A stretch of 64,000 nt of DNA from Vulcanimicrobiota bacterium (GTDB lineage: Bacteria; Vulcanimicrobiota; Vulcanimicrobiia; Vulcanimicrobiales; Vulcanimicrobiaceae), in NCBI GenBank assembly GCA_963833095.1, contig CAWHWQ010000008.1, positions 165,906 to 229,905 of the forward strand, in the 5' to 3' direction. Numbering within the stretch: position 1 is the stretch's first letter; every line of letters starts with the position of its first letter. Shown here piece by piece: positions 6,678 to 22,422 of the stretch. The notes under the pieces are model-generated. The model was given only the letters and a program-made list of their open reading frames with translations, ran no database searches and was not told the DNA's origin. The translations under genes were made by a program, and so were the position numbers.

Positions 6678-7230
6678 GGTAAGATGGCGGCAAGGAGGCG
6701 CTACTTTGACTGTCTTGCGTTGTTTTGCAGCTTTTCTTGCGCTGGCCGTCGCCGTTGCGTGCTCCGGCAATTCAGGGTTTGTCGCCGCGCGCCAGTCGAG
6801 CGCGCCCGGTGCAGGCGCTCCATCAAACTACGTCGGTACGTTTCCGATCGCGTACACGAGTCCGGCCGGAACATGCGGCACCTCGGTCCTGCCGACGGCA
6901 TTGAAGATCACCGGCACGGCGACCGGCAGCGGAGGGGCGGTGCTGCTGAGCGGGTCGATCGTCGGCGGGAGCGCGGCATTCAACGGGAGCAGTTTGCAGT
7001 CGAGTGGTGACAGCGCCGACCCGCAGTATCCGTCGGCGTTTGTCTTCGATAATTCGCTCGCGATTCTCTCTGCCGCGGGAACGTTACCGGGACCGCTGTT
7101 CCAATTAGAGATCGACGTCGCCGCCTGGAATCCGCCCGCGACCACCGGCCCGAACGTTTTGGTCTGGTTTAACTCTACGGCTTGCAGCGAATCCGACGAG
7201 TTCGCGATTCTCGGTACGCCGGCACCGTAA
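6676..7230 (+). CDS. Putative lipoprotein
   Basis: Hydrophobic signal ending LAVAVAC-SG (lipobox-like); no recognised domain; exact start uncertain. Confidence 0.6.
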   Translation: MVRWRQGGATLTVLRCFAAFLALAVAVACSGNSGFVAARQSSAPGAGAPSNYVGTFPIAYTSPAGTCGTSVLPTALKITGTATGSGGAVLLSGSIVGGSAAFNGSSLQSSGDSADPQYPSAFVFDNSLAILSAAGTLPGPLFQLEIDVAAWNPPATTGPNVLVWFNSTACSESDEFAILGTPAP

Positions 7231-7233
7231 GAC

Positions 7234-8238
7234 TTAGAGCAGACGCATCGCGCGTTTGACGTCGGCCAATACCACGGCGGCAATCTCGCGCGTGCGTGCC
7301 GTCCCTTCCTCGATGATCCGCTCGACCTGCATTGGATCGGCGCGATAGATCGTGAGGCGCTCGCGCACCGGACGCAGATACTCGTTGAGTTGTTCGGCAA
7401 AGTCGCCCTTATCCGCGACGCATCCAAGCGCGCCTGAGCGGCACTCTGCGGCGATACCGTCGACCTTGAGCGGATTGACGAATTTCCACAACGCAAAGAC
7501 CGGGCAGACTTCGGGACGGCCGGGATCGCCGCGCCGAATTTTTTGTGGATCGGTAACCATCGAGCGGACTTTTTTCGTCGTCGTTTCGTCGTCGTCGGCG
7601 ATGAGGATTGCGTTGTCGTATGATTTCGACATCTTGCGCCCGTCGGTGCCGGGCACTTCGGCAAATTCGGTCAGCGTCGGATGCGGTTCCACGAGCACCT
7701 CCGCGCCGTTGCCGTAAAGATAATTGAAGCGCCGCACGACTTCGCGCCCGAGTTCGAGGTGCGCGACTTGATCGCGACCGACCGGCACGCGTTCGCCGCG
7801 CACGATCGCCACGTCGCACAATTGTAGCAGCGGATAGCCCAAGAAGCCGGCGGTGGCAATCTGCGCGCCGAGTGCCTCGATCTGACTTTTGAACGTCGGC
7901 ACGCGCTCGAGCCACGAGATCGGCGTGATCATCGAGAGCAACGTGTACAGTTCGGAGATCTCGGGCACTGCCGATTGCAAAAAGATCGTCGACTTGTTGG
8001 GATCGACGCCGGCGGCGAGCCAGACCGCGACCATCTCGTTGCGCGCATCGCGAATCGCTTGCGGGTCTTCAAAGCCGGTCGTATACGCGTGCAAATCGGC
8101 GATTTCGAAATAGGCGTCGGCCGTATCGCAATAATTCGCCCATTGGGTCAGCACGCCCACGAGATGGCCGAGATGTAGTCCGCCGGTCGGGCGCATACCC
8201 GACATCACGCGTGGTTTAGCTTCAGTCGCGCTCGTCAT
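7234..8238 (-). CDS. trpS: Tryptophanyl-tRNA synthetase
   Basis: SGMRPTGGLHLGH (HIGH-like), YPLLQ, VPVGRDQVAH, GRKMSKS. Confidence 0.97.
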   Translation of the reverse strand: MTSATEAKPRVMSGMRPTGGLHLGHLVGVLTQWANYCDTADAYFEIADLHAYTTGFEDPQAIRDARNEMVAVWLAAGVDPNKSTIFLQSAVPEISELYTLLSMITPISWLERVPTFKSQIEALGAQIATAGFLGYPLLQLCDVAIVRGERVPVGRDQVAHLELGREVVRRFNYLYGNGAEVLVEPHPTLTEFAEVPGTDGRKMSKSYDNAILIADDDETTTKKVRSMVTDPQKIRRGDPGRPEVCPVFALWKFVNPLKVDGIAAECRSGALGCVADKGDFAEQLNEYLRPVRERLTIYRADPMQVERIIEEGTARTREIAAVVLADVKRAMRLL

Positions 8239-8244
8239 CGGCGC

Positions 8245-9003
8245 TCAATACGCCGCGCGCATGCCGTCAACTTGCACGGCGTGCGCAATTCGCTCGCGCA
8301 CGAATGCGCGCGCAAAGCGTACGGCGGCGCGCAGTTCGTCGCCTCGAGCAAGTGCAAAGGCCAGCGCCATCGCAAGCGTGCAGCCCGTGCCGCGCATCTC
8401 GCCGCTGATGCGCTGGCCCGAAAACGTCTCGACGCCGTCGCGATCGGCCAGCACGTCGGACGGTTCCCCAGCGAGGTGGCCGCCTTTGAGCAGCACCGCG
8501 CGAGCGCCGCGCGAGCGAAGTTCCACGGCGGCGTCCACGAGCTGCGCGCGGCCGATCTCGCGTCCGAGCAAGGCCACGGCTTCATCGAGATTCGGGGTCA
8601 GCACCACCTGTGGCAGAATCAGCAGCTCCGCGCCGATTGCGCCCAGCGTCCCCTCGCCGGCGAGCGCACCGCTTCCGGTCGCGGAGACGACCGGATCGAC
8701 AACCACGGGAAGCTCTCTGACGGCAAGGGCCGCGGCGACGGCATGTACCGCATCCGGCGAACCCAGGGCACCGACGCGAACCGCGCCCACGAGGTTCCAC
8801 GGGATCGCCTCGAGCTGCGCTTGCACCGTCGTCCGCGAGAGCGGTTCGAGGGCATGCACCCCGCGCGCATCCTGCGCGCTGATCGCGGCAAGTACGCTGA
8901 AGACGCGCGCGCCAAGCGCGGCGCCGATCCGCAGATCGAGCCCGACGCCCGCGACGTTCCACGGATGTGTCGTCCCGATGGTTAGGACGGTCACTTCACC
9001 CAT
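8245..9003 (-). CDS. thiD: Hydroxymethylpyrimidine/phosphomethylpyrimidine kinase (divergent N-terminus)
   Basis: VVVDPVVSATGSG, LTPNLDEA, VLLKGGH, RGTGCTLA. Start 9003 (ATG) or 8994 (GTG). Confidence 0.85.
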   Translation of the reverse strand: MGEVTVLTIGTTHPWNVAGVGLDLRIGAALGARVFSVLAAISAQDARGVHALEPLSRTTVQAQLEAIPWNLVGAVRVGALGSPDAVHAVAAALAVRELPVVVDPVVSATGSGALAGEGTLGAIGAELLILPQVVLTPNLDEAVALLGREIGRAQLVDAAVELRSRGARAVLLKGGHLAGEPSDVLADRDGVETFSGQRISGEMRGTGCTLAMALAFALARGDELRAAVRFARAFVRERIAHAVQVDGMRAAY

Positions 9004-9362
9004 CCGAGACGCTCGTATACACCGAAGCCGGCGTCGACCAACGCCGAAAGTTCCACGAGCAGCTCGCGCTCGGGGCGCACGAAATTGAAGCACGAACGGC
9101 CGTGCAAGCGCTTTTTGAGCGCATCGCTCACGCTGCCGAGCAGTTCGGGATGCGAGTAGACCGGCGAGAGATGAAAGCTCACGAAGGCGCGGCGGATCTG
9201 CACGCCGGCAAACGGCATCGCGCGTTTGAACTCGGAGACGTACTCGCCGTCGAGCATGTAAAACGTGGCGGTGTCTTGCGCCGCGTGCAGCCGCGACGCG
9301 TACGGTGCGAGCAATCCCTTGAGCACCGCAAACGTGCCGGCAAAATCACGCGCCGCCGGCAT
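8991..9362 (-). CDS. Conserved small protein, DUF1801/YdhG-like
   Basis: FAGVQIRRAFVSFHLSPVY...LKKRLHGRSCFNF pattern; overlaps thiE and thiD ends. Confidence 0.55.
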   Translation of the reverse strand: MPAARDFAGTFAVLKGLLAPYASRLHAAQDTATFYMLDGEYVSEFKRAMPFAGVQIRRAFVSFHLSPVYSHPELLGSVSDALKKRLHGRSCFNFVRPERELLVELSALVDAGFGVYERLGWVK

Positions 9363-10005
9363 TCCACCGCTCCACTAGCGCACGTGCGGCCGCACCCGGA
9401 TCCGGAGCGCTCGCAACCGCCGAGATCACCGCCGCCATGCTCACGCCGGTTGCGCGCACCGCGTCGAGCTGAGCCAGGCCAATCCCGCCGATCGCTGCCG
9501 CCGGCAACCAACTCTCGGAGGCGATGTCGCGCAATCCCTCGATGCCGATCGGTATCCCCGCGTCGTCCTTGGATGCAGTCGCGTACACCGCGCCGATCCC
9601 GACGTAGTCGACGTCCTCGACGTTCGCGTAGCGGACTTCGTCGACGTTGCCGCACGAGAGGCCGACCAGACGATCGGCGAGCGCCTTACGCACCGGTGCG
9701 ACCGCGGCGAAGCCCTCGTCGTCGGGGCCGAGGTGAACGCCGTCGCACTGATATTTGAGCGCTGCACGCCAATCGTCGTTGACAATCAATAGCGCCCCGT
9801 GCGCGAGCGTCTGCTGGCGCAGCAATTGCAAATGTCCGACGTTCACGCCGTCTTTGGCGCGATATTGCAGCACCTTCACCCCCGCCTCGAGCGCCGCGCA
9901 ACCGATCTCGAGCACGCGTGCATCTTCGTTGACGATCACATAGATGCCGCGTAGCCGCTCGGCGCGACGGGTTCGCGCTAGGAGCGCTGCTTCATCCGTC
10001 GCCAT
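9346..10005 (-). CDS. thiE: Thiamine phosphate synthase
   Basis: Real start ATG 10005 (MATDEAAL); LQYRAK, LIVNDD, DGVHLGPDD, DYVGIGAVYATASK, AIGGI, AVISAV. Confidence 0.93.
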   Translation of the reverse strand: MATDEAALLARTRRAERLRGIYVIVNEDARVLEIGCAALEAGVKVLQYRAKDGVNVGHLQLLRQQTLAHGALLIVNDDWRAALKYQCDGVHLGPDDEGFAAVAPVRKALADRLVGLSCGNVDEVRYANVEDVDYVGIGAVYATASKDDAGIPIGIEGLRDIASESWLPAAAIGGIGLAQLDAVRATGVSMAAVISAVASAPDPGAAARALVERWNAGGA

Positions 10006-10157
10006 AGCACGATATTCGCGAGGAGATAGATCGCAAAGACGACGGGGATGCCGACGGCGATAGCGGTGTTGTGACGTTGCAGCGCGATCGGCACGATCAA
10101 CACGAAACACAACACGCCGAACATCAACATCGTGATGAGGCGCGTGAACGGCATCAT
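9978..10157 (-). CDS. Small 2-TM protein (59 aa; below the ORF-track cutoff)
   Basis: Hand translation [63 protein letters not shown] overlap with the parB stop. Confidence 0.65.
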   Translation of the reverse strand: MMPFTRLITMLMFGVLCFVLIVPIALQRHNTAIAVGIPVVFAIYLLANIVLWRRMKQRS

Positions 10158-11010
10158 GGTTCGAGCAACAGATCCGAGAGGCGCAAGAGTTCGGTTTCGT
10201 TGGCGAAACGGAACTCGATCTTGCCGCCTCTGTTGCCGCGCACCAGCGCCACGTGCGTGCCGAACCGCTCGCGCAGGCGCGACTCGAACTCAGCTTCGTC
10301 GGGCGAGAGGTCGCGGACGCGCCCAGTTGCGGCCGGCGTTTTGACTGCACCGGTGATTTTCTCGAGCGCCCGCACGGAGAGACCATCTTTGAGGGCGCGC
10401 TGCGCCAGCTTGAGACGGTCGCTCGCTGGAGCGGCAAGCAGCGCACGGCCGTGTCCGGCGGATAGGCGCCCGTCGACCAGCATCACCTTGATCGCGTCAG
10501 GCAGCGCGAGCAGTCGCAGGGAATTGGCGATCGCCGGACGGCTGCGTCCCAGGCGCCCCGCCAGATCTTCCTGCGTGAAGCCATACTCATCCATCAAGCT
10601 CGAAAAGCCGGCAGCTTCTTCGATCGGATTGAGGTTCTCGCGCTGGAGATTTTCGATGATCGCGACTTCGAGCGAATCACGGTCGTCGGATTCGCGCACG
10701 ATCGCCGGAATCGTCGGCCGCTGCAGTGTTGCGCACGCGCGCCAACGCCGTTCGCCCGCCACGAGTTCGAAGTTCTCGCCGCGTTTGCGCACAATGATCG
10801 GCACCAGCACGCCGTACTCGCCGATCGACACGCGCAGATCGTCCATCGCGGCTTCATCGAAATGTTTGCGTGGCTGAAACGGATTGGGGGTGATGCGCGC
10901 TACCGGAATTTCTCGCAGCGCTTCTTGCGCCGCGGGCGAGGTCGGAACCGGTGCGTCGCCGAGTAGCGCGCCCAGTCCCCGGCCCAATCCGCGCTTGGGT
11001 GCTGACTCAT
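10154..11010 (-). CDS. parB: Chromosome partitioning protein ParB/Spo0J
   Basis: [13 protein letters not shown]-terminal peptide, [20 protein letters not shown] (CTP-binding box II), [14 protein letters not shown] with [12 protein letters not shown]; one indel near 11003. Confidence 0.96.
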
Positions 11011-11779
11011 ACCGATGCGCGGTGCTCCGAGCAATTCTTTCGCGAGCGAAATATAGGCTTGCGCGCCGCGGCTCTTTACGTCGAAGAGGATGACCGGTTT
11101 GCCAAACGACGGCGCTTCAGAAAGACGGATGTTGCGCGGAATCTGTGTTTTGAACATCTGCTGCGGGAAGAATTTTTCAAGCTCGTCGAGCACTTCCATC
11201 GCCAGGCGCGTGCGGCCGTCGAACATCGTCACCAGGACGCCGCTGACGTGCAGGGTGGGGTTGAGCGCTTCGCGCACGCGGCGGACCACGGCGGTGAGCT
11301 GCGAGAGACCTTCGAGCGCGTAATACTCGGCTTGCACCGGAATGATCGCTTCTTCCGCCGCGGTGAGCGCGTTAATCGTGAGAAGCCCGAGCGACGGCGG
11401 GCAATCGATCAAGATGAAATCGTAGCGTGAGGCGACCGGTAAGAGTGCTTGGCGTAGACGCGTTTCACGCGAAAGCAAAGAGACAAGCTCGATCTCGGCA
11501 CCGGCCAGATTGATCGTTGCGGGCACGAGCGTAAGTGTGTCGATCTCCGTGCGCACCGCGACATCGTCGATGCTCGCTTCCTGCAACAAGACGTCGTAGA
11601 CATCGCGTTGCAAGCCGTGCTTGTCGATACCGAATCCCGTCGTCGTGTTGCCTTGCGGATCGCAATCCACGACGAGCACGCGCCGGCCTTCAACGGCAAG
11701 CGCAGCACCGAGATTAACGGCTGTCGTGCTCTTTCCGACGCCGCCTTTTTGATTTACGAGGGCGATAATGCGACGTCAA
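11005..11779 (-). CDS. parA: Chromosome partitioning ATPase ParA/Soj
   Basis: [21 protein letters not shown] lies in frame upstream of the tracked [47 protein letters not shown]. Both ends affected by indels. Confidence 0.95.
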
Positions 11780-13167
11780 CCGATGGCTCTGTCAACAACG
11801 GCGAGATGGCCGTCCAGTAGTGCGAGGAGAACTTCGCGCTCGTTACGCTCGGGGCGCTCTGTAACCTGCTCGAACAGCCAGTGCAGCGCTGCGCCGACGC
11901 GTGCATCACCGCGAAATTCGCTCGGCGCCAAACCGTGGCGCACCATCGCTGCAATGACGTCGCCGCCGCTGATTGCAAGGTCGGCAACCGAGAACGCGGG
12001 CTTGCGTTCTACTTCCTCCCAGACCCGTGCTTCGAAGCGCTCGTTCGAATCGTCGCGCTTGGGCAAACCCGAACCCGCGATATCGGCGTGGCGCACGGCG
12101 AACTGGCGCTGCAAATGCTCGAGGCCGATGCGGCGGATGAAACGGCGAATCGCCGCGTCGCTGAGCTCGGGGTCCTGCACGTACATGTGCTGGCGGATCA
12201 GGTGCTCAACCGTGTCGACCGTCTCGTTGGAAAAGCGCAACCGCTGGAGCATCGCGGCCGCCATGTCGGCCCCGACCTGCTCGTGGCGATAGAAATGCGG
12301 GCCTTCCTTCGTTCGGGGCTTGCCAACGTCGTGGAGTAGTGCAGCCAAGCGAAGAGTCGCATCCCTCGGTGGAATTGCATCGAGGGTCGCTAGGTTGTGT
12401 TGCCAGACATCGTAAGCATGCCACTCGTTCTGCTCGACGCCGGCACCCTCGAGCAGCTCCGGCCAGAACCGCGCGAGCACCCCGGTATCCGCCAGGAGGC
12501 GCAGCCCAATGGAGGGCTTGGGCGCCAGGCCGAAGAGTTTTTGCAATTCGTCGTGGATACGCTCGGGCGCGACGCTGCTCACCAGAGGAGCGGCCGCGCG
12601 CATCGCCTCGATCGTGGCTGGCGTGGGCTCATAGCCGAAGCGTGCGGCGAACTGTGCGGCGCGCAGCATGCGCAGCGGATCTTCTTCGAAGGCGACCGGG
12701 GTAAGGATATCGATTCGGCGCGCGCGGATGTCAACCGCGCCGCCATAGGGATCGACGAGCTCGGCGCCCGGAAGCGCACGGGCGATCATGTTCATCCGGA
12801 AGTCGCGCCGAGCCAGGTCGTCCTCGAGGGGGATCTCCGGCCCGCTCTGGACCTCGAAATCGCGGTGTCCATGGCCGGTTGAGCGCTCGCGGCGCGGCAA
12901 CGCCACGTCGACGACCAGGCCGCCGACCGTCAGCTTGGCCACCGCAAAGGCGGCGCCAACGAGATCGACCCGTCCCAGCGTCTGGAGGCGCGCGGTCAAC
13001 GCCTCGAGCGTCAGGCCAGTAACGACATAGTCGAGATCCTTGGCCGGCACGTCGACCCCTTCGAGGTCAGCACGAAGCTCGTCGCGCACCCGACCGCCGA
13101 CGGCAAAGAGCCGGCCGGGCGCGAGCGCCTCAGCCAGCCGGGCGTCGAGCGGATGAGACTGGTACAT
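11776..13167 (-). CDS. cca: Class II tRNA nucleotidyltransferase (CCA-adding family) with HD domain
   Basis: AVGGRVRD...DLDY, LARRDFRMN, EDPLRMLRAAQFAARF, ERIHDEL, ALLHDVGKP; AGGAGG RBS. Confidence 0.9.
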   Translation of the reverse strand: MYQSHPLDARLAEALAPGRLFAVGGRVRDELRADLEGVDVPAKDLDYVVTGLTLEALTARLQTLGRVDLVGAAFAVAKLTVGGLVVDVALPRRERSTGHGHRDFEVQSGPEIPLEDDLARRDFRMNMIARALPGAELVDPYGGAVDIRARRIDILTPVAFEEDPLRMLRAAQFAARFGYEPTPATIEAMRAAAPLVSSVAPERIHDELQKLFGLAPKPSIGLRLLADTGVLARFWPELLEGAGVEQNEWHAYDVWQHNLATLDAIPPRDATLRLAALLHDVGKPRTKEGPHFYRHEQVGADMAAAMLQRLRFSNETVDTVEHLIRQHMYVQDPELSDAAIRRFIRRIGLEHLQRQFAVRHADIAGSGLPKRDDSNERFEARVWEEVERKPAFSVADLAISGGDVIAAMVRHGLAPSEFRGDARVGAALHWLFEQVTERPERNEREVLLALLDGHLAVVDRAIG

Positions 13168-13261
13168 CGCCTCCTATCGTATCAGGACGGTTCCATGCCG
13201 CTTCGCGGCGCCGCACATCCTGTGCTCGGAACCTTCCTCACCATCCTGGCGATCGCGAAAA

Positions 13262-13277
13262 TGTTCCCCGTGAAACA
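13262..13277. promoter_or_regulatory. parS site 1
   Basis: TGTTCCCCGTGAAACA, 14/16 to the consensus TGTTTCACGTGAAACA; upstream of cca-parA-parB. Confidence 0.8.
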
Positions 13278-13443
13278 TTTGGTGATTATCCCTTGACCGC
13301 ACGTATCCGGCGGAAAGGATTTTTCGCCATTCCAGGTTGGAACGGCGCTGAAAAGCGACTCATCTGAGAGGATTCTCACTCCTGTTGAAACCGAAATTGG
13401 ACCAACGTAGACTTGAGGCATCAGGGCTAAGGAGGCCCAAGCT

Positions 13444-13632
13444 ATGATGCCCGCAGACGAACCCTTCGCTGTGACCAGAGTGATCGGCACCGCCCACGAT
13501 TTGGTTCAAATGCTTCGTGGCTACGGTCAACCCGCAGTTACTCCAAGCGCGGTCGTTGACGGCAAGAGCCTCAAGGACGCGCTGCTGGGCCTGCGGAGCG
13601 TTATCGACGAATTCTTAGCGGGGAAGCTCTAA
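13444..13632 (+). CDS. Small hypothetical passenger protein (62 aa)
   Basis: AAGGAGG RBS upstream; amphipathic C-terminal helix LKDALLGLRSVIDEFLAGKL. Confidence 0.6.
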   Translation: MMPADEPFAVTRVIGTAHDLVQMLRGYGQPAVTPSAVVDGKSLKDALLGLRSVIDEFLAGKL

Positions 13633-13750
13633 GAATCGCGTTCCGATTCCGCCTTAGCTACCTCTGCCGCCGCAAGCTTGCCGTACCAGGTAAGGAACTC
13701 CTCGCTGTGCTCGACGCCGAAAGCGATGATCGACCTCGGCGACAGCCTTT

Positions 13751-13903
13751 TTACTCAGCCGTTTCTTTAACGCGGAGCCGGATTGCGAGCAGCTTGCGGT
13801 TCTCGTCCTCAGTAAGTTCGGGACGGCTAATCTCGACGAGATTTTCAAGTTCGTCCTCATCCGGATCGCGAGCTTTGCGCGTTCGTTTGGCCTTCTCTTC
13901 CAC
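13751..13903 (-). CDS. Small charged hypothetical passenger protein (50 aa, possibly longer via indel)
   Basis: Hand translation MEEKAKRTRKARDPDEDELENLVEISRPELTEDENRKLLAIRLRVKETAE; a protein-like frame (LSPRSIIAFGVEHSEEFLTWYGKLAAAEVAKAESERDS) continues past an A5 run to about 13629. Confidence 0.4.
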   Translation of the reverse strand: MEEKAKRTRKARDPDEDELENLVEISRPELTEDENRKLLAIRLRVKETAE

Positions 13904-14103
13904 GGGAAGGCCACTATAGCACGTTGATCCGCGAATTTGCTTCGATCATCCGCAAAAAGAGCAGGATAGCGGATTTTCCTCGGGGAACAGCATCGAACAC
14001 ACGGTCGCGAGGATGAAGCCTACGCTTCGCCCAAACGGCCAAGTCCCGAAAGGGAAGGGCGCCAACGTTGCAACGCTGACGCCCATTGGACCGGTTCTGG
14101 GAC

Positions 14104-14176
14104 CTCCCGGGGTCGGAATCGAACCGACAGCCTGACCATGGACAGTGGACCGCTCTACCATTGAGCTACACCGGGA
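14104..14176 (-). tRNA. Atypical tRNA-like gene, anticodon GTC (Asp), inside the transposon
   Basis: Minus strand TCCCGGTG-TA-GCTC-AATGGTA-GAGC-G-GTCCA-CTGTCCA-TGGTC-AGGCT-GTCGG-TTCGATT-CCGAC-CCCGGGA-G. Canonical D and T arms; bulged acceptor stem, T-T mismatch in the anticodon stem, C37, no encoded CCA. Confidence 0.8.
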
Positions 14177-14268
14177 TCAAGGAACGAGGGCGAGGCCGCC
14201 AGCCTCGCCTTTTCCTATCCAAGGGTCCCGTTGCGTCGTTACTCTGCCCGAGTGCCCACTCCTTGTGA

Positions 14269-14296
14269 TCGACCTGTGGATAGACCGCAATATAAT
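14269..14296 (+). promoter_or_regulatory. Candidate sigma70 promoter for the transposase
   Basis: TCGACC (14269-14274), 16-nt spacer, TATAAT (14291-14296), about 110 bp upstream of the transposase ATG. Confidence 0.45.
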
Positions 14297-14408
14297 GTGC
14301 ACGTTGTGTGCAGGAGCTTCAAAAACACAAGATATAGCGGGTCGATTTTCTCCCTGACCGCACGTAAAATGCCAACCAGGTGGCATGTCGGCCACCTAGC
14401 TTAGAAGC

Positions 14409-15329
14409 ATGGCTTCTAAGACGAACCTGGCCCCCGTGCAAAAGTATACGTTCAAGGATTTCGAGCAAGACTTCCCAACCGAGCGCGCATGCATGGAATG
14501 GCTGCTGGAGCACTTCTATCCCTACGGCATCCATTGCCTGACCTGCGGTGAGGTCCGGCCTCACCATCTGCTCAAGACTCGCCCGAAGGTCGCCTCATGC
14601 GACTACTGCGGGTCGCACACACATCCGACAGCCGGTACGATCTTCCACAAGTCGCGCACGTCGCTGCGGACGTGGTTCCACGCGATCTTCCTGATGAGCG
14701 CCACCCGATGCGGAATCTCGGCCATGCAACTAATGCGCGAAACCGGCGTCACCTACAAGACTGCCTGGCGCATGTTCAATCAGATTCGCGCCATGCTCGC
14801 CGAGAACGTCGTGCTCGAAGGCAAGGTCGAAGCGGACGAGACCTACATGGGCGGCTACAAGCGCGGCAAGAAGTATCGCGCCGGTGTCGGCAAGACCGTT
14901 GTCGCTGGTGCGGTCGAACGTGGCGGCAAAGTGTTCGCGTACCTGCCGAAAGACGGACGCGATGGCTACGAATTAACCGAGAACATTCGAGCGCGCGTGA
15001 TGCCCGAAACAATGATCTTCACGGACGAGGCGCTTCAATACAGTCGTCTGTCACGCATGGGCCAAGGCTATCTTCACCGTCGCATCCATCACGCGCAAAA
15101 AGTATATGTGCGCGGCGACGTGCATACGAATACGATCGAGGGGTTCTGGTCGTTAGTAAAAGGCGGGATTCGCGGGGTGTATCACTCGGTCTCCGCCAAG
15201 CATTTGCAAGGGTACCTGAACGAATACACCTTTCGCTACAATCACCGCGACGACGCGCGTCCTATGTTTAGGACTTTTTGCTCGAACGTCCGGAAGGACT
15301 TTGTGGCGATTCGCCGTCGCGTCGTCTAA
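14409..15329 (+). CDS. IS1595-family DDE transposase (ISXO2-like) with N-terminal zinc ribbon
   Basis: CLTCG...CDYCG, TAGTIFHKSR, GISAMQL..GVTYKTAW, VEADETYMGG, FTDE, HTNTIEGFWSLVK, YLNEYTFRYNHR; uninterrupted. Confidence 0.96.
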   Translation: MASKTNLAPVQKYTFKDFEQDFPTERACMEWLLEHFYPYGIHCLTCGEVRPHHLLKTRPKVASCDYCGSHTHPTAGTIFHKSRTSLRTWFHAIFLMSATRCGISAMQLMRETGVTYKTAWRMFNQIRAMLAENVVLEGKVEADETYMGGYKRGKKYRAGVGKTVVAGAVERGGKVFAYLPKDGRDGYELTENIRARVMPETMIFTDEALQYSRLSRMGQGYLHRRIHHAQKVYVRGDVHTNTIEGFWSLVKGGIRGVYHSVSAKHLQGYLNEYTFRYNHRDDARPMFRTFCSNVRKDFVAIRRRVV

Positions 15330-15453
15330 CAGCCTTACCGAGATCACGCATGAAATCCTCACGCGTGAACGATTCTAGACCTTGCGTTTTCATAGCAGCC
15401 AACGAATCCTTACTTGTTGCCGAATTGCTGCCTTGGTTTATGAGGTCTGTCAT
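15268..15453 (-). CDS. Small convergent passenger ORF overlapping the transposase 3' end
   Basis: 61 aa with AGGA RBS; amphipathic FTREDFMRDLGKAVRR; directly downstream of the Ntn-hydrolase gene. Confidence 0.5.
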   Translation of the reverse strand: MTDLINQGSNSATSKDSLAAMKTQGLESFTREDFMRDLGKAVRRRDGESPQSPSGRSSKKS

Positions 15454-15461
15454 AATGGTTC

Positions 15462-16269
15462 CTAACTTCTCTTCTCACCGAGTATTTGCTTTATTTGCAC
15501 GGGTTTGAAAGCCATCCATCCGCGTGATGGTCGCGACGTCTATGGCCCCTCCAACCCCGCGAACTCCGATCATCCACTGCTGTAGTGTTATCGTCACCCG
15601 AAGCATAGAAATAACTACGTCGATGCAGTCCTGAAGGGGAAGAAACTGCCAAGGGATAGGTAAGGCGAACTGCTCCTTAAGCTTCTTTTCAAGGTCAGGG
15701 TCGTGCTTTCCGAGGATGTTCTCTACCACTTCAGGTAAGCGGAAATCGAAGCCCTGAATCAGCCGATCTACCACCTCGCGTTGACCGCCCCACTGCACCC
15801 CAAAGTCCGGTAGGCTTTCCACGGGCTTGAGATTTATTGGGACCTTCACCTCAAATGCGCGCCCGTATGGAGCGCCTTCGTCATAACCGGCCACGAAGAA
15901 AATCATCTCTTGGCCTTGCGGGGGGTTCGGGTCCATGCCCGCTTTCTTCCATTGCTTATCAAAGAAAGCGCCAAGGCGCTCGGCGAATTGTTCGACGGAG
16001 AGCCGCTGCGCCCCGATTTCAGTGTCGAACTCGGGCATAAAGCTGACTGCCGTTCGAGGCTCATTTTGACCGATGACCCCGGCGCCAAAGGTGACCGCAG
16101 CCACATACGGCTGAGCCTTTGAGGTTAGCAGCTTACTCGCGTGGTCGTAGGTCGCAGGAATGAGGACCTGTTGTCCATTTGGCAGTTGCTGCATTACCGT
16201 TAAGGTGACCCGGCTGTCGGCGGCGAGCACGATCCCTTCCGGGCCTTTAAACACAAGTCCGAGAGACAT
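15462..16269 (-). CDS. Proteasome-beta-like Ntn-hydrolase (passenger gene)
   Basis: Real start ATG 16269: M-SLGLVFKGPEGIVLAADSRVT...KL, FFVAGYD, LQDCID, GVGGAIDVATIT. As read it stops at 15475; one indel near 15510 would give GFKPVQIKQILGEKRS* ending at 15462. Confidence 0.75.
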
Positions 16270-16368
16270 GGGCGGGTATTGTAGCACGGCACGCTCGGCG
16301 GCTGCCATGGGCCGTAGGTCGGTGCGGTTACGTGCCGTGCGGGGATAATCACCAAACATTTTCGCAAT

Positions 16369-16384
16369 TGTTTCACGGGGAACG
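16369..16384. promoter_or_regulatory. parS site 2
   Basis: TGTTTCACGGGGAACG; reverse complement CGTTCCCCGTGAAACA, 15/16 identical to parS site 1. Confidence 0.75.
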
Positions 16385-16432
16385 TGGCGGACGGCCAGCC
16401 TTCGAGGTTCCGCCGAGCGGGTTAGCCGGGCG

Positions 16433-17218
16433 ATGAGCACCCCGACTGCGTCGCCTGTGCGAAGCGCGAGGCGCTTAGCGAGGCCGAATGTCGAAGGCGG
16501 CCCTGTGCCGAAGTTGCGCAGCGTGAAGATCGGGCTGAGCTACGATCAGGGGTCGCCCAAGTATCGCCTTTATACCGGGGCGCTTATGGCTGCCGCGGAG
16601 CAGGCCAATATCGATGTTCAACCCTTTTGGCTCGCCGGCGCGGACCGGGAAACTGACTGGACCGCGATCCAGACGATGGACGGCCTGTTGCTTACCGGCG
16701 GAGCCGACATCGAGCCGCAGCGCTATGGTCTGAGCGACGCCGCCGGCGTTTGCTCGACGTATCCGGGGCGCGACGACATTGAATGGTCAATTCTCGAGGC
16801 CGCGATGGCGCGGCGTTTGCCGATGCTTGCGATTTGCCGCGGCATGCAGCTCATCAACGTATACCACGGCGGGACGCTCCATCCCGACCTCGTGACCGTT
16901 GAGAACCATCAGCTCGACGATGACCGGCGACACGCCGTGATGTGCGAGGCGACGGCGGCATTGCCCATTCTCATCGGCCAACTCGAGGGCGAGGTCACCT
17001 CGACCCATCATCAGGCCGTCGCAAAGCTCGGGCATGGGCTTCAGATTGCCGCGCGCCACGCGGACGGGACGGTCGAAGCGATCGAATGGACCCGCCCGAT
17101 GCGCCGCCCGTGGCTAGCCGCTGTACAGTGGCATCCGGAGCGCATGGGGCTCGATGAACCATTTTCGGGCGGACTTTTCCGCGGGTTTCTACAGGCCGTC
17201 TCGCTCGCGCGCGACTAA
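16433..17218 (+). CDS. Peptidase C26 / gamma-glutamyl-gamma-aminobutyrate hydrolase family
   Basis: DGLLLTGGADIEP, LAICRGMQLINVYHGGTL, STHHQAV, AVQWHPE (class I GATase triad). True start probably a GTG near 16505-16523. Confidence 0.88.
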   Translation: MSTPTASPVRSARRLARPNVEGGPVPKLRSVKIGLSYDQGSPKYRLYTGALMAAAEQANIDVQPFWLAGADRETDWTAIQTMDGLLLTGGADIEPQRYGLSDAAGVCSTYPGRDDIEWSILEAAMARRLPMLAICRGMQLINVYHGGTLHPDLVTVENHQLDDDRRHAVMCEATAALPILIGQLEGEVTSTHHQAVAKLGHGLQIAARHADGTVEAIEWTRPMRRPWLAAVQWHPERMGLDEPFSGGLFRGFLQAVSLARD

Positions 17219-17231
17219 GCCGACCCCGCGC

Positions 17232-17909
17232 CTACCAGCAGAGCGGGCGTTTCTCCGGAACGCCCGTCCGCCGTGGGAAACGGCTCGGGGTGGGCCCGAT
17301 TTTCCGCACCACAATGACGCGACGGTCGCCTTCGAGCGGCGTTTCGCTCTCGACGTGACCGCCCAGCATCACGGCCGCATCGCTGAGCGCATGGCGCTCG
17401 CGCGCGTCGATCGTGCCGCGTTGCAAGAGCGCTTTGCCGCCGACGGCCACGAACGGCAACAACAATTCGACCACGGTCGGACCGCCGGCGACCGCACGTG
17501 CCGTCCCGGTTGCAAATTGGTCCCGCAGCCGGGTATCGTGCCCGGCGACTTCGGCGCGCTCGGGTACCACCTCGCCCGCGAGTCCCAGTTCGCCCAACAT
17601 CCGCTCGAGGAAACGCGCCTTCTTCACGGTGGCCTCGATCAGGGTCACGGGGACGCCGGTTACGATCGCGAGCGGTATCGCCGGCAGGCCACCGCCTGAG
17701 CCGATGTCGACCAGCGATTCGCCGAGGTCGGCCGCAATCGTGAGGCTGTCGAGGATGTGCGGCGCAAACTCAGCCGCCGACTTCGCCCCGGTGAGATTGA
17801 ACTGACGGTTGGCCTCGAGCACGGCTTCACCATAGCGCACGAGGCGATCGAGGTGCTCGGGCGGTGCCCCGGACGCCTCAAGAAGCGCGCGAAGTTGCGG
17901 GTCACTCAA
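17232..17909 (-). CDS. rsmG: 16S rRNA G527 N7-methyltransferase
   Basis: [43 protein letters not shown]; follows mnmG. Confidence 0.95.
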
Positions 17910-19780
17910 CGTATGTTGCTGCTTACTTTAGGTAGCCTCCCACGCTCGATGAAAAGCCCAACGATCGCAACGTCGGCCGGCGTGACGCCCGGGATCCGGC
18001 CTGCTGCGCCGAGCGTGCGCGGCCGTTGCGCGCTCAATTTCTCGCGTGCCTCGCGCGAGAGTGCCGAAATATCGGCATAATCAAAGTCCAGAGGAATGAG
18101 GGCGCGCTCCGCTTTGGCCGCGCGTTCGATCGCGATTTCCTGACGCCGCACGTACCCGGCGACTTTGAGTTGAATCGTGATGCGCTCGCCGATCTCAGGC
18201 GCAAGCCGCGGTTCGAACCGTTCCGCTATATCACCAAACTCCAGCGTCGGACGGCGCAAGGCGTCAGCTAGCGTTGCCCCCGCATCGAACTCCTGATCTT
18301 TGACGCGCTCGGCTCCGACGCGTGTGCGTTCGGCGCGGGTAATGCCCGCGTGCAACGACGCCTGGCGCACCTCGTAGGCCTCCCACGCAGCGTCATCGAC
18401 CAGGCCGATCTCGCGGCCGATCGGCGTCAGGCGCGTATCAGCGTTGTCGTGCCGCAGAATCACGCGATGTTCGGCGCGCGAGGTCAACATGCGATAGGGT
18501 TCGTCGACACCTTTGGTCACGAGATCGTCGATCAACACCCCGATGTACGCTTGACTGCGCGAAAGGCGTAGCGGCTCGCGTTCTTGCACCGCGCGCGCGG
18601 CGTTGATTCCCGCAAGCAACCCTTGCGCGGCGGCCTCTTCGTAGCCCGACGTCCCATTGAGTTGTCCGCAGTGATACAGCCCGGCGATGCGCTGCGTTTC
18701 GAGCGTATCGCGCAATTCGGTCGGCGGCACCATGTCGTATTCCACCGCATATCCGGCGCGCAACATCACACAGTCTTCCAACCCGGGCAGCGTATGCAGC
18801 ATTTGGATTTGAATTTCAGCCGGGAGCGAGGTCGAAAATCCGCCGACGTAGAGTGTGGGTTCGTTCCAGCCTTCGGGTTCGATGAAAAGTTGGTGCGACG
18901 GATTGTGGGCGAACTTCACCACTTTATCTTCGATCGACGGACAATAGCGCGGACCGATGCCTTCGATCAAATCGAGGCCGTACAGCGGCGAATACAAGAG
19001 GTTGTCGCGCACGAGTTTGTGCGTGCGCTCGTTGGTTTCGGTGACATAACACGGTAATTGCGGGCCGTTGAACGTTGCGTCGCTCGTGTAGGAAAACAGC
19101 AACGGCGTTGCGCTCGGCGGCTGCATGAGCATGTCGTCGTAATTGACGCTGGTTTTATCGATGCGCGGCGGCGTGCCGGTTTTGAGTCGTTTGGTCGGAA
19201 ACCCTAAGCGGCGCAGCGCATGCGCGAGACCGATCGCCGGCGCTTCGCCGAAACGTCCTTCGGCTTGCACGACGCTTCCGCGAAAGGTTTTACCGCCCAG
19301 AAACGTGCCGGTGGCGAGCACGACGCTGCGCGCGTAATGGCGCGCGCCGCCGGCGCATGCCACGCCACGAATGCGGCCGTCTTCGACGATGAGATCGTCA
19401 ACCAGGCCTTGCACGATTGTCAGGTTCGGCTGCGCGCGTAGCACGTCGATTGCAAGCCGCGCGTAGGCAGGCTTGTCCATGAGTTGACGCAGCGCGCGCA
19501 CCGCCGGACCCTTGCTCTCGTTCAAAAAACGCGCGTGCAGACTGCAACGATCGGCCATGCGCGCCATCGCACCGCCCAGCGCATCGATCTCGCGCACGAG
19601 TTGTCCCTTGGCGCTGCCGCCGATCGACGGATTGCACGGCAGCGTGCAGATCTTGTCAGGGTCGCCCGTGACCAGCATCGTTGGGACGCCCAGGCGCGCG
19701 GATGCGAGCGCCGCTTCAATGCCCGCATGACCCCCACCAACGACGATGACACCCGCGTCATCATTGTGTCCATTCTGCAT
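17906..19780 (-). CDS. mnmG: tRNA U34 carboxymethylaminomethyl modification enzyme GidA
   Basis: [72 protein letters not shown]. Confidence 0.98.
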
Positions 19781-19821
19781 GCCAGGCGAGCGCTTTAAGA
19801 AGTTCGAAGCAAATACCTACT

Positions 19822-20199
19822 ATGAAGACGCTTCCAATGACGTTGGCCGCGCTCTTGAGTGTTGCGGCCCTCCTTATCGCACCTGCGGTCGCCCAGACGA
19901 TCAGCGTGAACCACGCGACTATGGCCATGACCGTCGGCCAGACCGCCGAGATCTACGTGGAATCGCACGGTGGCAGCGCGCCGGGCATCGCCGGCGGCAC
20001 ATGCGGGAGCTATCCGCCTGGGAAGCCCTCAGACATGGTCGCGATCACGCACTTCCACCAGTACAAGGTAAGCATCGGGGGCACGCTGACCCTCGACGTG
20101 AAAGCCCAGCATCCGGGGCGGTGCTATGTTCGCTATAGCACGAGTGGCAATAATGGCCGTCAAGCATTGACCCAGACGGACTTCACGGTGAAGCCATGA
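19822..20199 (+). CDS. Secreted hypothetical protein
   Basis: Signal peptide ending AVA-Q; beta-rich mature part with two Cys. Confidence 0.6.
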   Translation: MKTLPMTLAALLSVAALLIAPAVAQTISVNHATMAMTVGQTAEIYVESHGGSAPGIAGGTCGSYPPGKPSDMVAITHFHQYKVSIGGTLTLDVKAQHPGRCYVRYSTSGNNGRQALTQTDFTVKP

Positions 20200-20534
20200 C
20201 GAACGGACTGCGCATTAAAGCGCTGGCGAGCTTCGTGCTGGCATTCGCCACCTTTTCGGGCACGCTCGTCGATCGAACCACCGGGCAGCCCCTCACCCAC
20301 GTGCACGTGTACGTCGCCGGCCCAAGCGCCGAGGATGACATCACCGACGCTCACGGCCAGTTCACGCTCAAGAACCTCAAGCCGGGAAGCTACACGGTCA
20401 CGGTCGAGTCGAACGACGTGCCGCAGCAGACCTTCAAAGTGACGCTCTCCCATCGGATCACCGTCCTCACGATCAAGGCCTGCAGCACGACCCTCGACTA
20501 TCATTGCGCTGCGCCCGGCAGCGGTCCCGGCTAG
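20196..20534 (+). CDS. Carboxypeptidase-regulatory-like domain protein
   Basis: SGTLVDRTTGQPL...TDAHGQFTLKNLKPGSYTVTV. Confidence 0.8.
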   Translation: MTNGLRIKALASFVLAFATFSGTLVDRTTGQPLTHVHVYVAGPSAEDDITDAHGQFTLKNLKPGSYTVTVESNDVPQQTFKVTLSHRITVLTIKACSTTLDYHCAAPGSGPG

Positions 20535-21070
20535 GCCGTCGCGTGCGCGCGTAGCCGGAACGAAAACGCGATCATGATGATGCCGAAGAGAATCGCGTAG
20601 AAGCCGATCAGATAGATCACCGTGAGGATGCCGATCATCGGATAGATGATCAGCAGCACGCCGAAGACGATCGACAGGATTCCGCCCAGGATCAGCATCC
20701 ATTCGTTGGGGACTAGCGCGCGCAATTGGAAGGCCGCAATGAGTTCGAGGATCCCGGTGAGGATGGCCCAGATGGCGATCGCAAAATAGATCGAGAGTCC
20801 AGCCAGCCCCGGATAGAACACGACAAACGCCGCGACCACGATGCCGACGATGCCCTCGACCACGAAGGCGATCCAGCGTTCGTGCGCTTGTGCGGCGCGA
20901 AACGCCGAAACCAGCGCAAAAACGCCGTCGACAAACGCGTAGGCGCCGAATAAAAAGATCAGCGCCACGGCCGTTATGCCCGGCCAGAAAATCGCCAGAA
21001 GACCGAAAATCACCGCGGCAATACCGCGGATCAGCAACGCCCACCAGTTCCGTGCCAAAACTCCAAGCAT
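20531..21070 (-). CDS. HdeD/DUF308 family membrane protein
   Basis: NWWALLIRGIAAVIFG, LFGAYAFVDG, IAIWAILTGILELIAA, LIGFYAILFG; start ATG 21070. Confidence 0.88.
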   Translation of the reverse strand: MLGVLARNWWALLIRGIAAVIFGLLAIFWPGITAVALIFLFGAYAFVDGVFALVSAFRAAQAHERWIAFVVEGIVGIVVAAFVVFYPGLAGLSIYFAIAIWAILTGILELIAAFQLRALVPNEWMLILGGILSIVFGVLLIIYPMIGILTVIYLIGFYAILFGIIMIAFSFRLRAHATA

Positions 21071-21081
21071 GTCGTTCTCCC

Positions 21082-22422
21082 TCACTTGCCGATACAGAAG
21101 CGACCAAAGACGCCGCTGAGCACCTCGTCGGCGGCGACGTCTCCGGTGACGTGCCCGAGGGCAGCGTAAGCCTCCTGCAGGTCACCGACGATCAAATCAA
21201 CCGGCTCGCCAGCCCGGAGCGTTGCACTCGCCGCGTCGAGGGAACCGAGTGCCGCGCGTACGGCGTCGAACTCGCGCGCCGAGGCCAGGTGCGGCCGCTC
21301 GAGATCCGGTTGCTCGCCGCCCCAACCGACGCGGGCCAAGGAGGTGCGCACCGCGCGAATCGTGCCCGGCTCGTAGACGCTGCCGCTGATCGCGTCGGCG
21401 ATCCCGGCCTCGCGCGCCCCCGCTTCGCCCAGATCGGCCTTGTTGAAAAAGACGACGCGGTCGGCTGCTTTGGTTCGCGCGAGCAGCGCACGCGCGGCGT
21501 CCGAGAGCGGAGCGGACCCGTCGAGCACGAGCAGGGCGACGCGTGCGGATTCGAGCGCGCGCTGCGACCGTTCGATACCCGCGGCTTCCAAACGATCGGC
21601 ATGTTCACGAATGCCCGCGGTATCGACCAGGCGAACGCGCACGCCGTCGATGGCAATCGACTCCTCGATGGTATCGCGGGTCGTGCCCGCAATCTCGGAG
21701 ACGATTGCGCGTTCCTCGCCGAGCAACGCGTTGAGCAGCGAGGATTTCCCGGCGTTGGGTGGACCGACGATCGCTACCGTCACGCCTTCGCGCACCAGTC
21801 GCCCCACTTCGCCGTCGTGCTGCAGGCGCTGTAATTCGGCGACGATCGCGTCGAGTTCGTGCAACACGTGCGCGCGATCGGGATCGGGCACTTCTTCGGG
21901 AAAGTCGACCGCGCCGCTGCAATCTTCGACGATAGCCGTCAAACGCGCGCGAAGCGCGTTGACCTCGCCTGCAAGGCCACCGCCGAGATTGGCGAGTGCG
22001 GCACGTGCTGCCGAACGCGTCTCAGCGTCGATGACGTCGGCGACGGCCGCGGCGGCGTGCAGATCCATCTTGCCGTGCATAAAAGCGCGACGTGTAAACT
22101 CTCCGGGCTCCGCGAGACGCGCGCCCACCGCAAGCAACGCGCGCAACACCTCGCGCGCTACGATCGGCGAACCGTGAATCTGCAGCTCGAGCGTATCCTC
22201 GCCGGTGTAGCTGTGCGGTTGCGGCGAAAAGATCGCAACACCGCGATCGATCTGCGCTCCGCGCTCGTCGACGATGCTGGTATAGTGCGCGTAGCGCGGA
22301 CGCAGTCGCGCCGACGGCACGATCCGCGCGGCAATCGCGCGCACATCCGGTCCGCTGATGCGCACGATCGCGATCGCGCCGCGTCCCGGCGGCGTCGCGA
22401 GCGCAGCAATCGTCTCGCTCAC
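21082..22422 (-). CDS. mnmE: tRNA modification GTPase MnmE/TrmE
   Basis: TIAALATPPGRGAIAIVRISG, SYTGED, AEPGEFTRRAF, GPPNAGKSSLLN, DTAGIR, NKAD, FCIGK. Confidence 0.98.
   Translation of the reverse strand: MSETIAALATPPGRGAIAIVRISGPDVRAIAARIVPSARLRPRYAHYTSIVDERGAQIDRGVAIFSPQPHSYTGEDTLELQIHGSPIVAREVLRALLAVGARLAEPGEFTRRAFMHGKMDLHAAAAVADVIDAETRSAARAALANLGGGLAGEVNALRARLTAIVEDCSGAVDFPEEVPDPDRAHVLHELDAIVAELQRLQHDGEVGRLVREGVTVAIVGPPNAGKSSLLNALLGEERAIVSEIAGTTRDTIEESIAIDGVRVRLVDTAGIREHADRLEAAGIERSQRALESARVALLVLDGSAPLSDAARALLARTKAADRVVFFNKADLGEAGAREAGIADAISGSVYEPGTIRAVRTSLARVGWGGEQPDLERPHLASAREFDAVRAALGSLDAASATLRAGEPVDLIVGDLQEAYAALGHVTGDVAADEVLSGVFGRFCIGK

Follow-up and report, generated by a model that had tools for sequence, protein, structure and literature searches.

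The window analysed here, a stretch of 64,000 nucleotides from a Vulcanimicrobiota bacterium (assembly GCA_963833095.1, contig CAWHWQ010000008.1), contains a tRNA-like gene that is linked to a transposase gene of the IS1595 family. The reading favoured here, with a confidence that stops a little short of even, is that the gene specifies an element-borne, tRNA-shaped RNA that is kept for its shape and that would be neither an ordinary decoder nor a member of the host translation set. It is proposed because the stems are intact both in the window and in a homologue from another genome of the genus (a Candidatus Aquilonibacter sp. record, G017), while the anticodon loop and the anticodon itself differ between the two copies. 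Irregular tRNAs near transposon genes have already been noted in soil bacteria, and here one of them is tied to a defined transposase lineage. The comparison of the two copies adds intact stems with differing anticodons, and wider relatives of the transposase add a predicted matching antisense RNA that is directly testable.

The gene is the only tRNA that ARAGORN detected in the window, as Asp(gtc), and the Rfam tRNA model matched positions 14105–14175 with 49.2 bits (E = 1.7e-7 for the whole window; gathering score 29):

14104..14176, minus strand: irregular tRNA-shaped gene with anticodon GUC, C37, a U28.U42 pair, one extra base and no CCA (ARAGORN and Rfam).

The tRNA-like gene is genuine but irregular. 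The D arm and the T arm are perfect, and the variable loop of 5 nt belongs to a class-I body. The anticodon stem, on the other hand, holds the U28.U42 pair, the anticodon loop is CUGUCCA with U33 present and a C rather than a purine at position 37, and the 3' end continues as GGUCCC without CCA. There is one surplus base at the junction of the acceptor and the D arm, and a regular 7-bp acceptor with a 2-nt connector is not obtained. The acceptor can instead be drawn in three ways: with the 3' strand one base short and a gap opposite U6 (Infernal), with a seventh pair U.C and a connector of 3 nt (ARAGORN), or, in a hand reading, as an 8/4 fold with G8-C65 and a single U7.C66 mismatch. The two programs thereby support what a sequence-only reading had described, i.e., a tRNA-Asp(GTC)-like gene with perfect D and T arms, an irregular acceptor, a U-U pair, the CUGUCCA loop and no CCA.

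It is extremely improbable that the gene is due to chance or to assembly, that is, a false tRNA call or an ordinary tRNA with sequencing errors. It scores lower than the host class-I tRNAs and the genome is a metagenome-assembled draft (2.8 Mb, 8 contigs, 81% complete), but two programs agree on the gene at the E-value given above, a homologous tRNA-like gene is found at the same place in G017, and neither the extra base nor the base opposite U7 is an error in homopolymer length. The bases were also checked in other sequence data: a Logan contig from sequencing run X1 covers 14075–14407 with 0 differences to the window, although X1 may be the source sample of the genome, so that this match is not an independent confirmation. 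The gene is not usably covered in runs X2 and X5, of which X5 holds only a short look-alike. The Logan contigs of X1 and X2 both stop at 14103, the 3' border of the gene, for which strain variation or low depth are possible causes.

The homologue in G017 forms a perfect 7/5 cloverleaf; its body is class I, its loop CAGCUAA with A33, and its anticodon GCU. When the two copies are placed in homologous register, the window copy retains 20 of 21 cloverleaf pairs and the G017 copy 21 of 21; between the two, 11 pairs are identical, 1 is changed on one side and 8 are changed on both sides. When the same number of changes was placed at random in 200,000 trials, a mean of 9.9 pairs remained intact and none of the trials reached 20. 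The anticodon is not conserved (GUC in the window, GCU in G017), and both hairpins that flank the gene keep their structure in G017 despite a different sequence. The suggestion that the gene is no normal decoder is supported by these data, namely the GCU anticodon and A33 of the G017 copy, the intact stems of both copies and scores below those of the host class-I tRNAs, and a relic in decay would not fit the pattern either. None of the particular roles named in the sequence-only reading (processing tag, anticodon-nuclease decoy or nuclease-resistant variant) is singled out by the data. Searches for further copies were made by BLAST in 401 genomes of the phylum, where G017 held the only homologue and the four other matches were ordinary tRNA-Thr(CGT) genes, by two pattern scans of species-representative genomes, which returned only the G017 record, and by a scan of viral contigs, which returned none.

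A total of 41 tRNA genes are found in the host assembly, and CCA is absent from 15 of these, the tRNA-like gene included; its missing CCA is therefore not unusual. The comparison with the host tRNA-Asp, which the sequence-only reading had proposed, was made and revealed a separate canonical tRNA-Asp(GTC) with CCA on another contig, which shares the anticodon of the tRNA-like gene. The best-matching host tRNA is instead tRNA-Asn, with a global alignment score of 27 against a self-score of 73. The host tRNA-Asn(GTT) and the tRNA-like gene have in common six acceptor pairs (U1-A72, three C-G and two G-C), G73 and the absence of CCA. The extra base, the U.U pair and C37 set the tRNA-like gene apart from host tRNAs. 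With the Rfam model it scores 49.2 bits and the G017 homologue 53.9, against 63.2–72.4 for seven class-I tRNAs from this and related genomes, among which the tRNA-Asn of G017 reaches 72.4. The tRNA-Asn genes of the window host and of G017 are identical over 73 nt, whereas the tRNA-like genes of the two are only 59% identical.

The tRNA-like gene belongs to a unit of 1.38 kb (13993–15372) that consists of a terminator hairpin, the gene itself, a second hairpin, a control region and the transposase. The features of this unit and of the element that it contains, together with a remnant to their left, are the following:

13284..13305, plus strand: remnant copy of the element left end, directly oriented and 6 bp away from a parS-like site at 13262–13277.
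13993..14056, no strand: left end of the unit that G017 also has (75% identity), abutting a degenerate parS-like sequence at 13973–13989.
14057..14084, minus strand: terminator-like hairpin with a U-rich tail after it, 19 nt beyond the tRNA-like gene; the G017 counterpart forms the same hairpin from a different sequence.
14187..14215, plus strand: hairpin with the arms GGCGAGGC and GCCTCGCC, then TTTT on the plus strand (read by eye).
14216..14342, no strand: non-coding control region, 87% identical to G017, with a plus-strand promoter-like site at 14269–14296.
14344..14366, plus strand: usual left end of the IS1595-type element, at the start of homology to the five closest relatives, with the CCCTTGACA motif.
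14409..15329, plus strand: transposase of 306 aa, DDE_Tnp_IS1595 (PF12762, 117.4 bits, E = 7.2e-34).
15341..15372, no strand: right-end region of the element; homology to G017 ends at about 15369–15372.

The transposase also matches the zinc-ribbon PF12760 with 19.9 bits, which is under the Pfam cut-off of 25.4. Its start codon is located in the loop between the arms of a perfect inverted repeat of 9 bp, CTTAGAAGC / GCTTCTAAG (14400–14420), that is kept in G017 and that may hide the start codon from ribosomes.

The same unit is present in one other genome of the genus, G017, and a soil contig holds part of it. The nucleotide identity of the unit to G017 is 79–87% (BLAST), its orientation relative to the C26 peptidase gene is opposite there, and the G017 transposase has a 205-bp deletion. 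In the host assembly, which is 81% complete, the IS1595-family element has a copy number of 1. Divided into segments, identity between the window and G017 is 92% from the element left end to the ATG, 88% in the transposase, 87% in 14216–14342, 59% in the tRNA-like gene and 50–55% in the two hairpins. A protein-coding reason for the conservation of 14216–14342 was considered and rejected, as the ORFs are out of frame between the two genomes. At codon position 3 the transposase is 69% identical, and at fourfold-degenerate sites 59% against 57–60% in mnmG, rsmG and the C26 gene. This equality with the host genes speaks for vertical inheritance; the empty sites in 7 of 7 contiguous genus relatives and the presence of the transposase in only 4 of 151 family genomes speak against it.

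The closest transposase relatives (loci L094/L095, L014/L096 and L117) define where the element usually begins, as their homology starts at 14343–14353, about 55–65 bp ahead of the ATG. The repeated units of multi-copy relatives start 47–66 bp before the transposase match, and in a hand reading the CCCTTGACA motif marks the left-end position in most of 160 related loci. Because the relatives' homology starts at 14343–14353 while the tRNA-like gene ends at 14176, the gene lies outside the element; it is found between two left-end copies, 168 bp outside the left end of the intact element as the relatives define it. The five closest transposase relatives other than G017 have no tRNA-like gene at this position. 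The sequence-only reading had placed the gene inside an insertion sequence (IS), about 800 bp from its inverted repeat. It is correct that the gene accompanies the transposase, in a unit common to two genomes, and that an IS-end-like sequence exists at 13284–13305, but the gene is not within the usual element ends, and that sequence is a remnant of a left end in direct orientation. The view that the gene is not an attachment site seems reasonable, as no integrase and no partial tRNA duplicate was seen. The comparative data thus place the tRNA-like gene as linked to the element and not inside it, and the gene is probably not an ordinary decoder. For the long unit 13993–15372 no target duplication and no flanking inverted repeats were found, just a weak motif common to both ends, and as judged from its sequence it is linked DNA and not a proven transposable unit.

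A transcription unit can be predicted for the tRNA-like gene and is plausible. An outward-reading, minus-strand promoter-like site is found in the left end of the element (-35 at 14375–14370, -10 at 14350–14345). In G017 the only promoter-like site found in the region is one on the strand of the tRNA-like gene, with an 18-nt spacer and a shuffle expectation of 0.1, and terminator-like hairpins lie 3' of the gene in both genomes. It is proposed that the RNA is transcribed on the minus strand, either from the outward promoter-like site or by read-through, and that it is trimmed like a tRNA precursor, with transcripts ending at the hairpin 14057–14084. The second hairpin, 14187–14215, is oriented towards the transposase promoter and, on the minus strand, immediately precedes the 5' end of the tRNA-like gene; its G017 counterpart is listed as terminator-like, while the window copy is unlisted in the terminator scan. 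This arrangement bears on a different explanation, in which the gene would be a processing or insulating module, its shape serving as a cutting signal for RNase P or RNase Z that ends outward transcripts while the hairpins shield the transposase. The gene is indeed sandwiched by two hairpins that act as predicted terminators in opposite directions, the outward promoter-like site would supply the transcripts, and a function that depends on structure only fits an anticodon that is free to change. A plain terminator would, however, do the same job, and the five closest transposase relatives besides G017 manage without a tRNA-like gene here, which makes a processing module quite unlikely.

Several observations weigh against an RNA that is kept for its shape. 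Thermodynamic folding of the tRNA-like gene does not favour the cloverleaf (z = -0.67), and the promoter-like site in the window has a poor 19-nt spacer and is not listed by a standard scan. Only two full copies and one partial copy are known, and the covariation rests on one sequence pair. The 8 double changes could reflect a swap of tRNA cassettes instead of selection in place. Such a swap is conceivable because the tRNA-like genes of three wider relatives (L131, L166 and L172) cannot be aligned at all, although the DNA of their elements is 89–91% identical; even under a cassette swap, the genes that were swapped in are irregular. Of the three variants the window copy is the most defective, which fits decay. 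The third variant comes from an independent soil run, X6, in which a 352-nt contig aligns to 14033–14337 with 40 differences and 6 gaps; the listed subset comprises 17 differences and 5 gaps. Within this subset the differences are concentrated in the anticodon arm and, in a hand reading, give a different anticodon stem with a regular CUGUCAC loop and the anticodon GUC. This regular Asp-type loop suggests that the ancestor may have been a working decoder.

These points lead to an alternative that we consider unlikely, in which the gene is a spare tRNA-Asp passenger, weakly working or recently disabled, that the element would once have had as its neighbour and would now move by means of a surrogate left end, and whose oddities are early decay. 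G73 (in the ARAGORN reading), G10 and GUC are present, and these are identity elements of AspRS. The regular loop obtained from the listed X6 differences would be expected of such a passenger, as would the larger number of defects in the window copy than in G017. The left boundary of the unit (13993–14056) is, moreover, 75% identical between the genomes with a near-identical stretch of 21–23 nt, and two relatives (L036 and L061) lie within about 100 bp of ordinary tRNA genes. However, the G017 copy combines A33 and GCU without the long arm that a bacterial tRNA-Ser needs and yet keeps 21 of 21 pairs, which is not the pattern of decay. Furthermore, no target duplication or clear terminal repeat was found for the long unit, and the host already has its canonical tRNA-Asp.

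A further alternative, which follows the sequence-only reading, is that the gene serves as a decoy for an anticodon nuclease or some other enzyme that targets tRNA, or as a variant that resists such an enzyme, with the conflict driving the change of the arm. The concentration of differences among the three variants in the anticodon arm would agree with this, and the site of the insertion is a hotspot of variable content that holds cargo of the defence type (a protease matching PDC-S45 in G017 and a DUF3800 protein in Cybelea). It is nevertheless distinctly improbable: in neither genome does a nuclease or tRNA-targeting gene adjoin the tRNA-like gene, the cargo genes are not the same in the two genomes, in contrast to the tRNA-like gene, which accompanies the transposase in both, and C37 and A33 would cripple a tRNA that is resistant but working. 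tRNAs of phages and mobile elements with altered anticodon loops reportedly escape anticodon nucleases. They resemble the window gene in being element-borne with a loop that departs from that of the host, but they still decode and sit in phage tRNA arrays, whereas here U33 or the purine at position 37 is lost and the anticodon changes between copies.

The nearest precedents are the irregular tRNAs and allo-tRNAs of soil and peat bacteria, for which non-standard stems and unexpected anticodons are described (Mukai et al., Nucleic Acids Res 2017, PMC5389517). According to passages of these sources, one irregular tRNA overlaps a transposon-related ORF and others are near toxin-antitoxin genes, and some are charged but unused in translation, or inactive (PMC5389517; review Krahn et al. 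2020, PMC7609411); an association with transposable elements is suggested by the authors (PMC5389517). As described in those passages, allo-tRNAs have a long variable arm and a Ser/Sec-like identity, in contrast to the 5-nt variable loop and class-I body of the window gene. An 8/4 fold like that of allo-tRNAs, in which 12 bp of acceptor and T stem are divided 8/4 or 9/3, can be drawn for the window gene, but it needs the U.C mismatch, and the G017 copy is a plain 7/5 fold. The allo-tRNA passages hold nothing on a linkage to IS1595, a location beside parS or an antisense partner. Subgroups of the IS1595 family carry passenger genes, and elements of the ISEcp1 type capture DNA by means of a surrogate end. 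The window unit is like these passenger-carrying elements in having a transposase with linked extra DNA, and in relatives the repeated units, 1.8 to at least 3.4 kb in length, reach beyond the transposase gene. The cargo of the relatives is, however, downstream, whereas the extra DNA of the window lies upstream of the usual left end, and neither a surrogate end nor a target duplication was evident. Bacterial Y RNA (YrlA) has a tRNA-like domain and is not a decoder, as is proposed here for the window gene. YrlA itself (RF02553) was rejected as a match, with 17 bits against a gathering score of 69, and no Ro/Rsr gene was noted among the ORFs of 7000–22000, a region in which no search was aimed at Ro/Rsr.

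More distant relatives of the transposase offer a lead to what the anticodon arm might be used for. ARAGORN at default settings found 23 tRNAs in the 160 loci around transposase relatives, and several relatives with transposases 52–56% identical have irregular tRNAs 155–1179 bp downstream on the same strand. The irregular tRNAs are these:

L105: anticodon ACC, with a U.U pair; Rfam 62.2 bits.
L172: anticodon GCU on a class-I body, with C33; Rfam 64.1 bits.
L166: anticodon GUC with discriminator A; Rfam 62.5 bits.
L018: anticodon CUA; Rfam 62.9 bits.
L131 (= L133): anticodon CGG, 70 nt; not found by Rfam at E <= 0.05.
L046/L048: 98 nt, inside a 1791-bp unit that occurs twice in one genome; Rfam 46.2 bits.

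In L105, L172, L131 and L166 a strong promoter-like site (10–11 of 12 matches) follows the tRNA-like gene, and the sequence beginning 6–8 nt past the -10 hexamer of this site complements the 5' strand of the anticodon stem and the loop. L105 and L172 have perfect complementary runs of 14 and 12 nt, respectively, and L131 and L166 have runs of 14 and 12 bp with one G.U each; ordinary tRNAs in the same loci have complementary runs of at most 8. The anticodon arms differ between the elements, and the predicted antisense partner co-varies with them in the four elements. This pattern is a lead to a pair formed by a tRNA-like RNA and an antisense small RNA, and as the partner is co-encoded and matches the anticodon arm, it points to recognition of the arm by RNA-RNA or RNA-protein contacts rather than codon reading. 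If the antisense pairing is true, mobile elements reuse the tRNA shape for RNA recognition rather than for decoding. The relatives can also be described as having a module with three promoters, in which an irregular tRNA is followed by a small transcript with a complementary predicted 5' end and then by cargo:

Coordinates of the module: L105:3705–3913; L172:2847–3050; L131:2719–2940 (= L133); L166:3466–3660.

It is tempting to speculate that the window gene is an orphan of an undescribed two-RNA module of IS1595-family transposons, in which an antisense RNA and not the ribosome reads the arm, although on the predicted pairings this must be regarded as a rather doubtful possibility. Such a module could act in addiction or immunity as an RNA-RNA pair, or it could control transposition, and in it the arm would vary because the arm sets the specificity. 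No antisense partner was found for the window gene, since no complement of its arm with at most 2 mismatches in 16 nt exists anywhere in the assembly, and within 13200–15500 the best duplex to the anticodon arm was no better than shuffles (6 of 40 were as good); in G017 there is no antisense partner either. The window copy may thus be an orphan that is losing its function, because it has more defects than its two relatives and lacks an antisense partner. Literature searches returned no IS1595-linked tRNA-like gene and no description of the antisense pairing.

Two other ideas were rejected. If the arm acted as a guide RNA it should match the ends or flanks of the element, but the matches reach no more than 9 nt in the window and 7 nt in G017, lengths that 103 of 300 and 298 of 300 shuffles, respectively, equalled, and a duplex scan did no better. 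An 18-nt motif from the module of the relatives occurs in 17 loci, where about 17 are expected by chance, and 0 of the 17 have a tRNA or a transposase. Two loci of the wider family are worth recording by themselves. In a Dehalococcoidia record (L018:4173–4312) the tRNA with the CUA anticodon, which would read amber codons, lies 800 bp downstream of a related transposase, and a 17-nt direct repeat of its D and anticodon arm is found 109 nt beyond the tRNA. In L046:3513–3651 (= L048) the 98-nt tRNA-like sequence is enclosed by perfect 15-nt inverted repeats.

The unit is inserted in the par/gid region, where the order of genes is trpS, thiD/E, parB, parA and the gene for the CCA-adding enzyme, then the C26 peptidase gene, rsmG, mnmG and mnmE. 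Where a single contig spans the interval, as it does in 7 genus relatives, the site is empty in 7 of 7, i.e., the CCA-enzyme gene directly neighbours the C26 gene. In the relatives whose spacer was read, two palindromes lie between these genes, which we take to be parS-like from their agreement with the parS consensus. The window has an insertion of about 3.1 kb between the parS-like sites 13262–13277 and about 16354–16384. It contains the IS left-end remnant of 22 bp, two small ORFs that match no family, the degenerate parS-like sequence, the tRNA-like gene with its flanks, the IS1595-family transposase and a 321-aa ORF without family matches. The transposase gene, which is as rare in the family as stated above, is found between the CCA-enzyme gene and rsmG in five lineages (the window, G017, L094/L095, L097 and L014/L096), while three further copies sit elsewhere. 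Among the five the transposases are 71–96% identical, the orientation flips, and a parS-like site is found 6 bp to about 1 kb away. Targeted insertion beside parS would be the simplest reading of this distribution, and the IS may target parS. A location beside parS in five lineages of one bacterial family would be an unusual choice of target for an IS, and literature searches gave no description of insertion beside parS.

Some minor observations concern the same region. The left end is 6 bp from a parS-like site in 3 of the 5 lineages; the positions that concern this arrangement in the five lineages are window 13262–13305 and about 16354–16384, L094:1905–1946, L097:1422–1468 and L014:4353. A Candidatus Cybelea record (L014:1002–1083) has an 82-nt tRNA with anticodon GCC and a variable region of 11–13 nt (Rfam 60.8 bits) between rsmG and the related transposase, and a DUF3800 gene comes after this tRNA. 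Next to the element in G017, a trypsin-like ORF (L002:2–715) has a match to PADLOC PDC-S45, a candidate defence family (E = 3.1e-12). The final approximately 35 residues of this ORF are encoded by the right end of the element, and the window (15268–15453) retains only a 61-aa ORF with that tail. Finally, a 25-nt motif just upstream of the CCA-enzyme gene (13212–13236) is 96% identical in several genomes of the genus, and three copies of it are found 69 bp apart on contig C5 of the host assembly (G000:C5:214218–214380), possibly as a repeat family or a small array.
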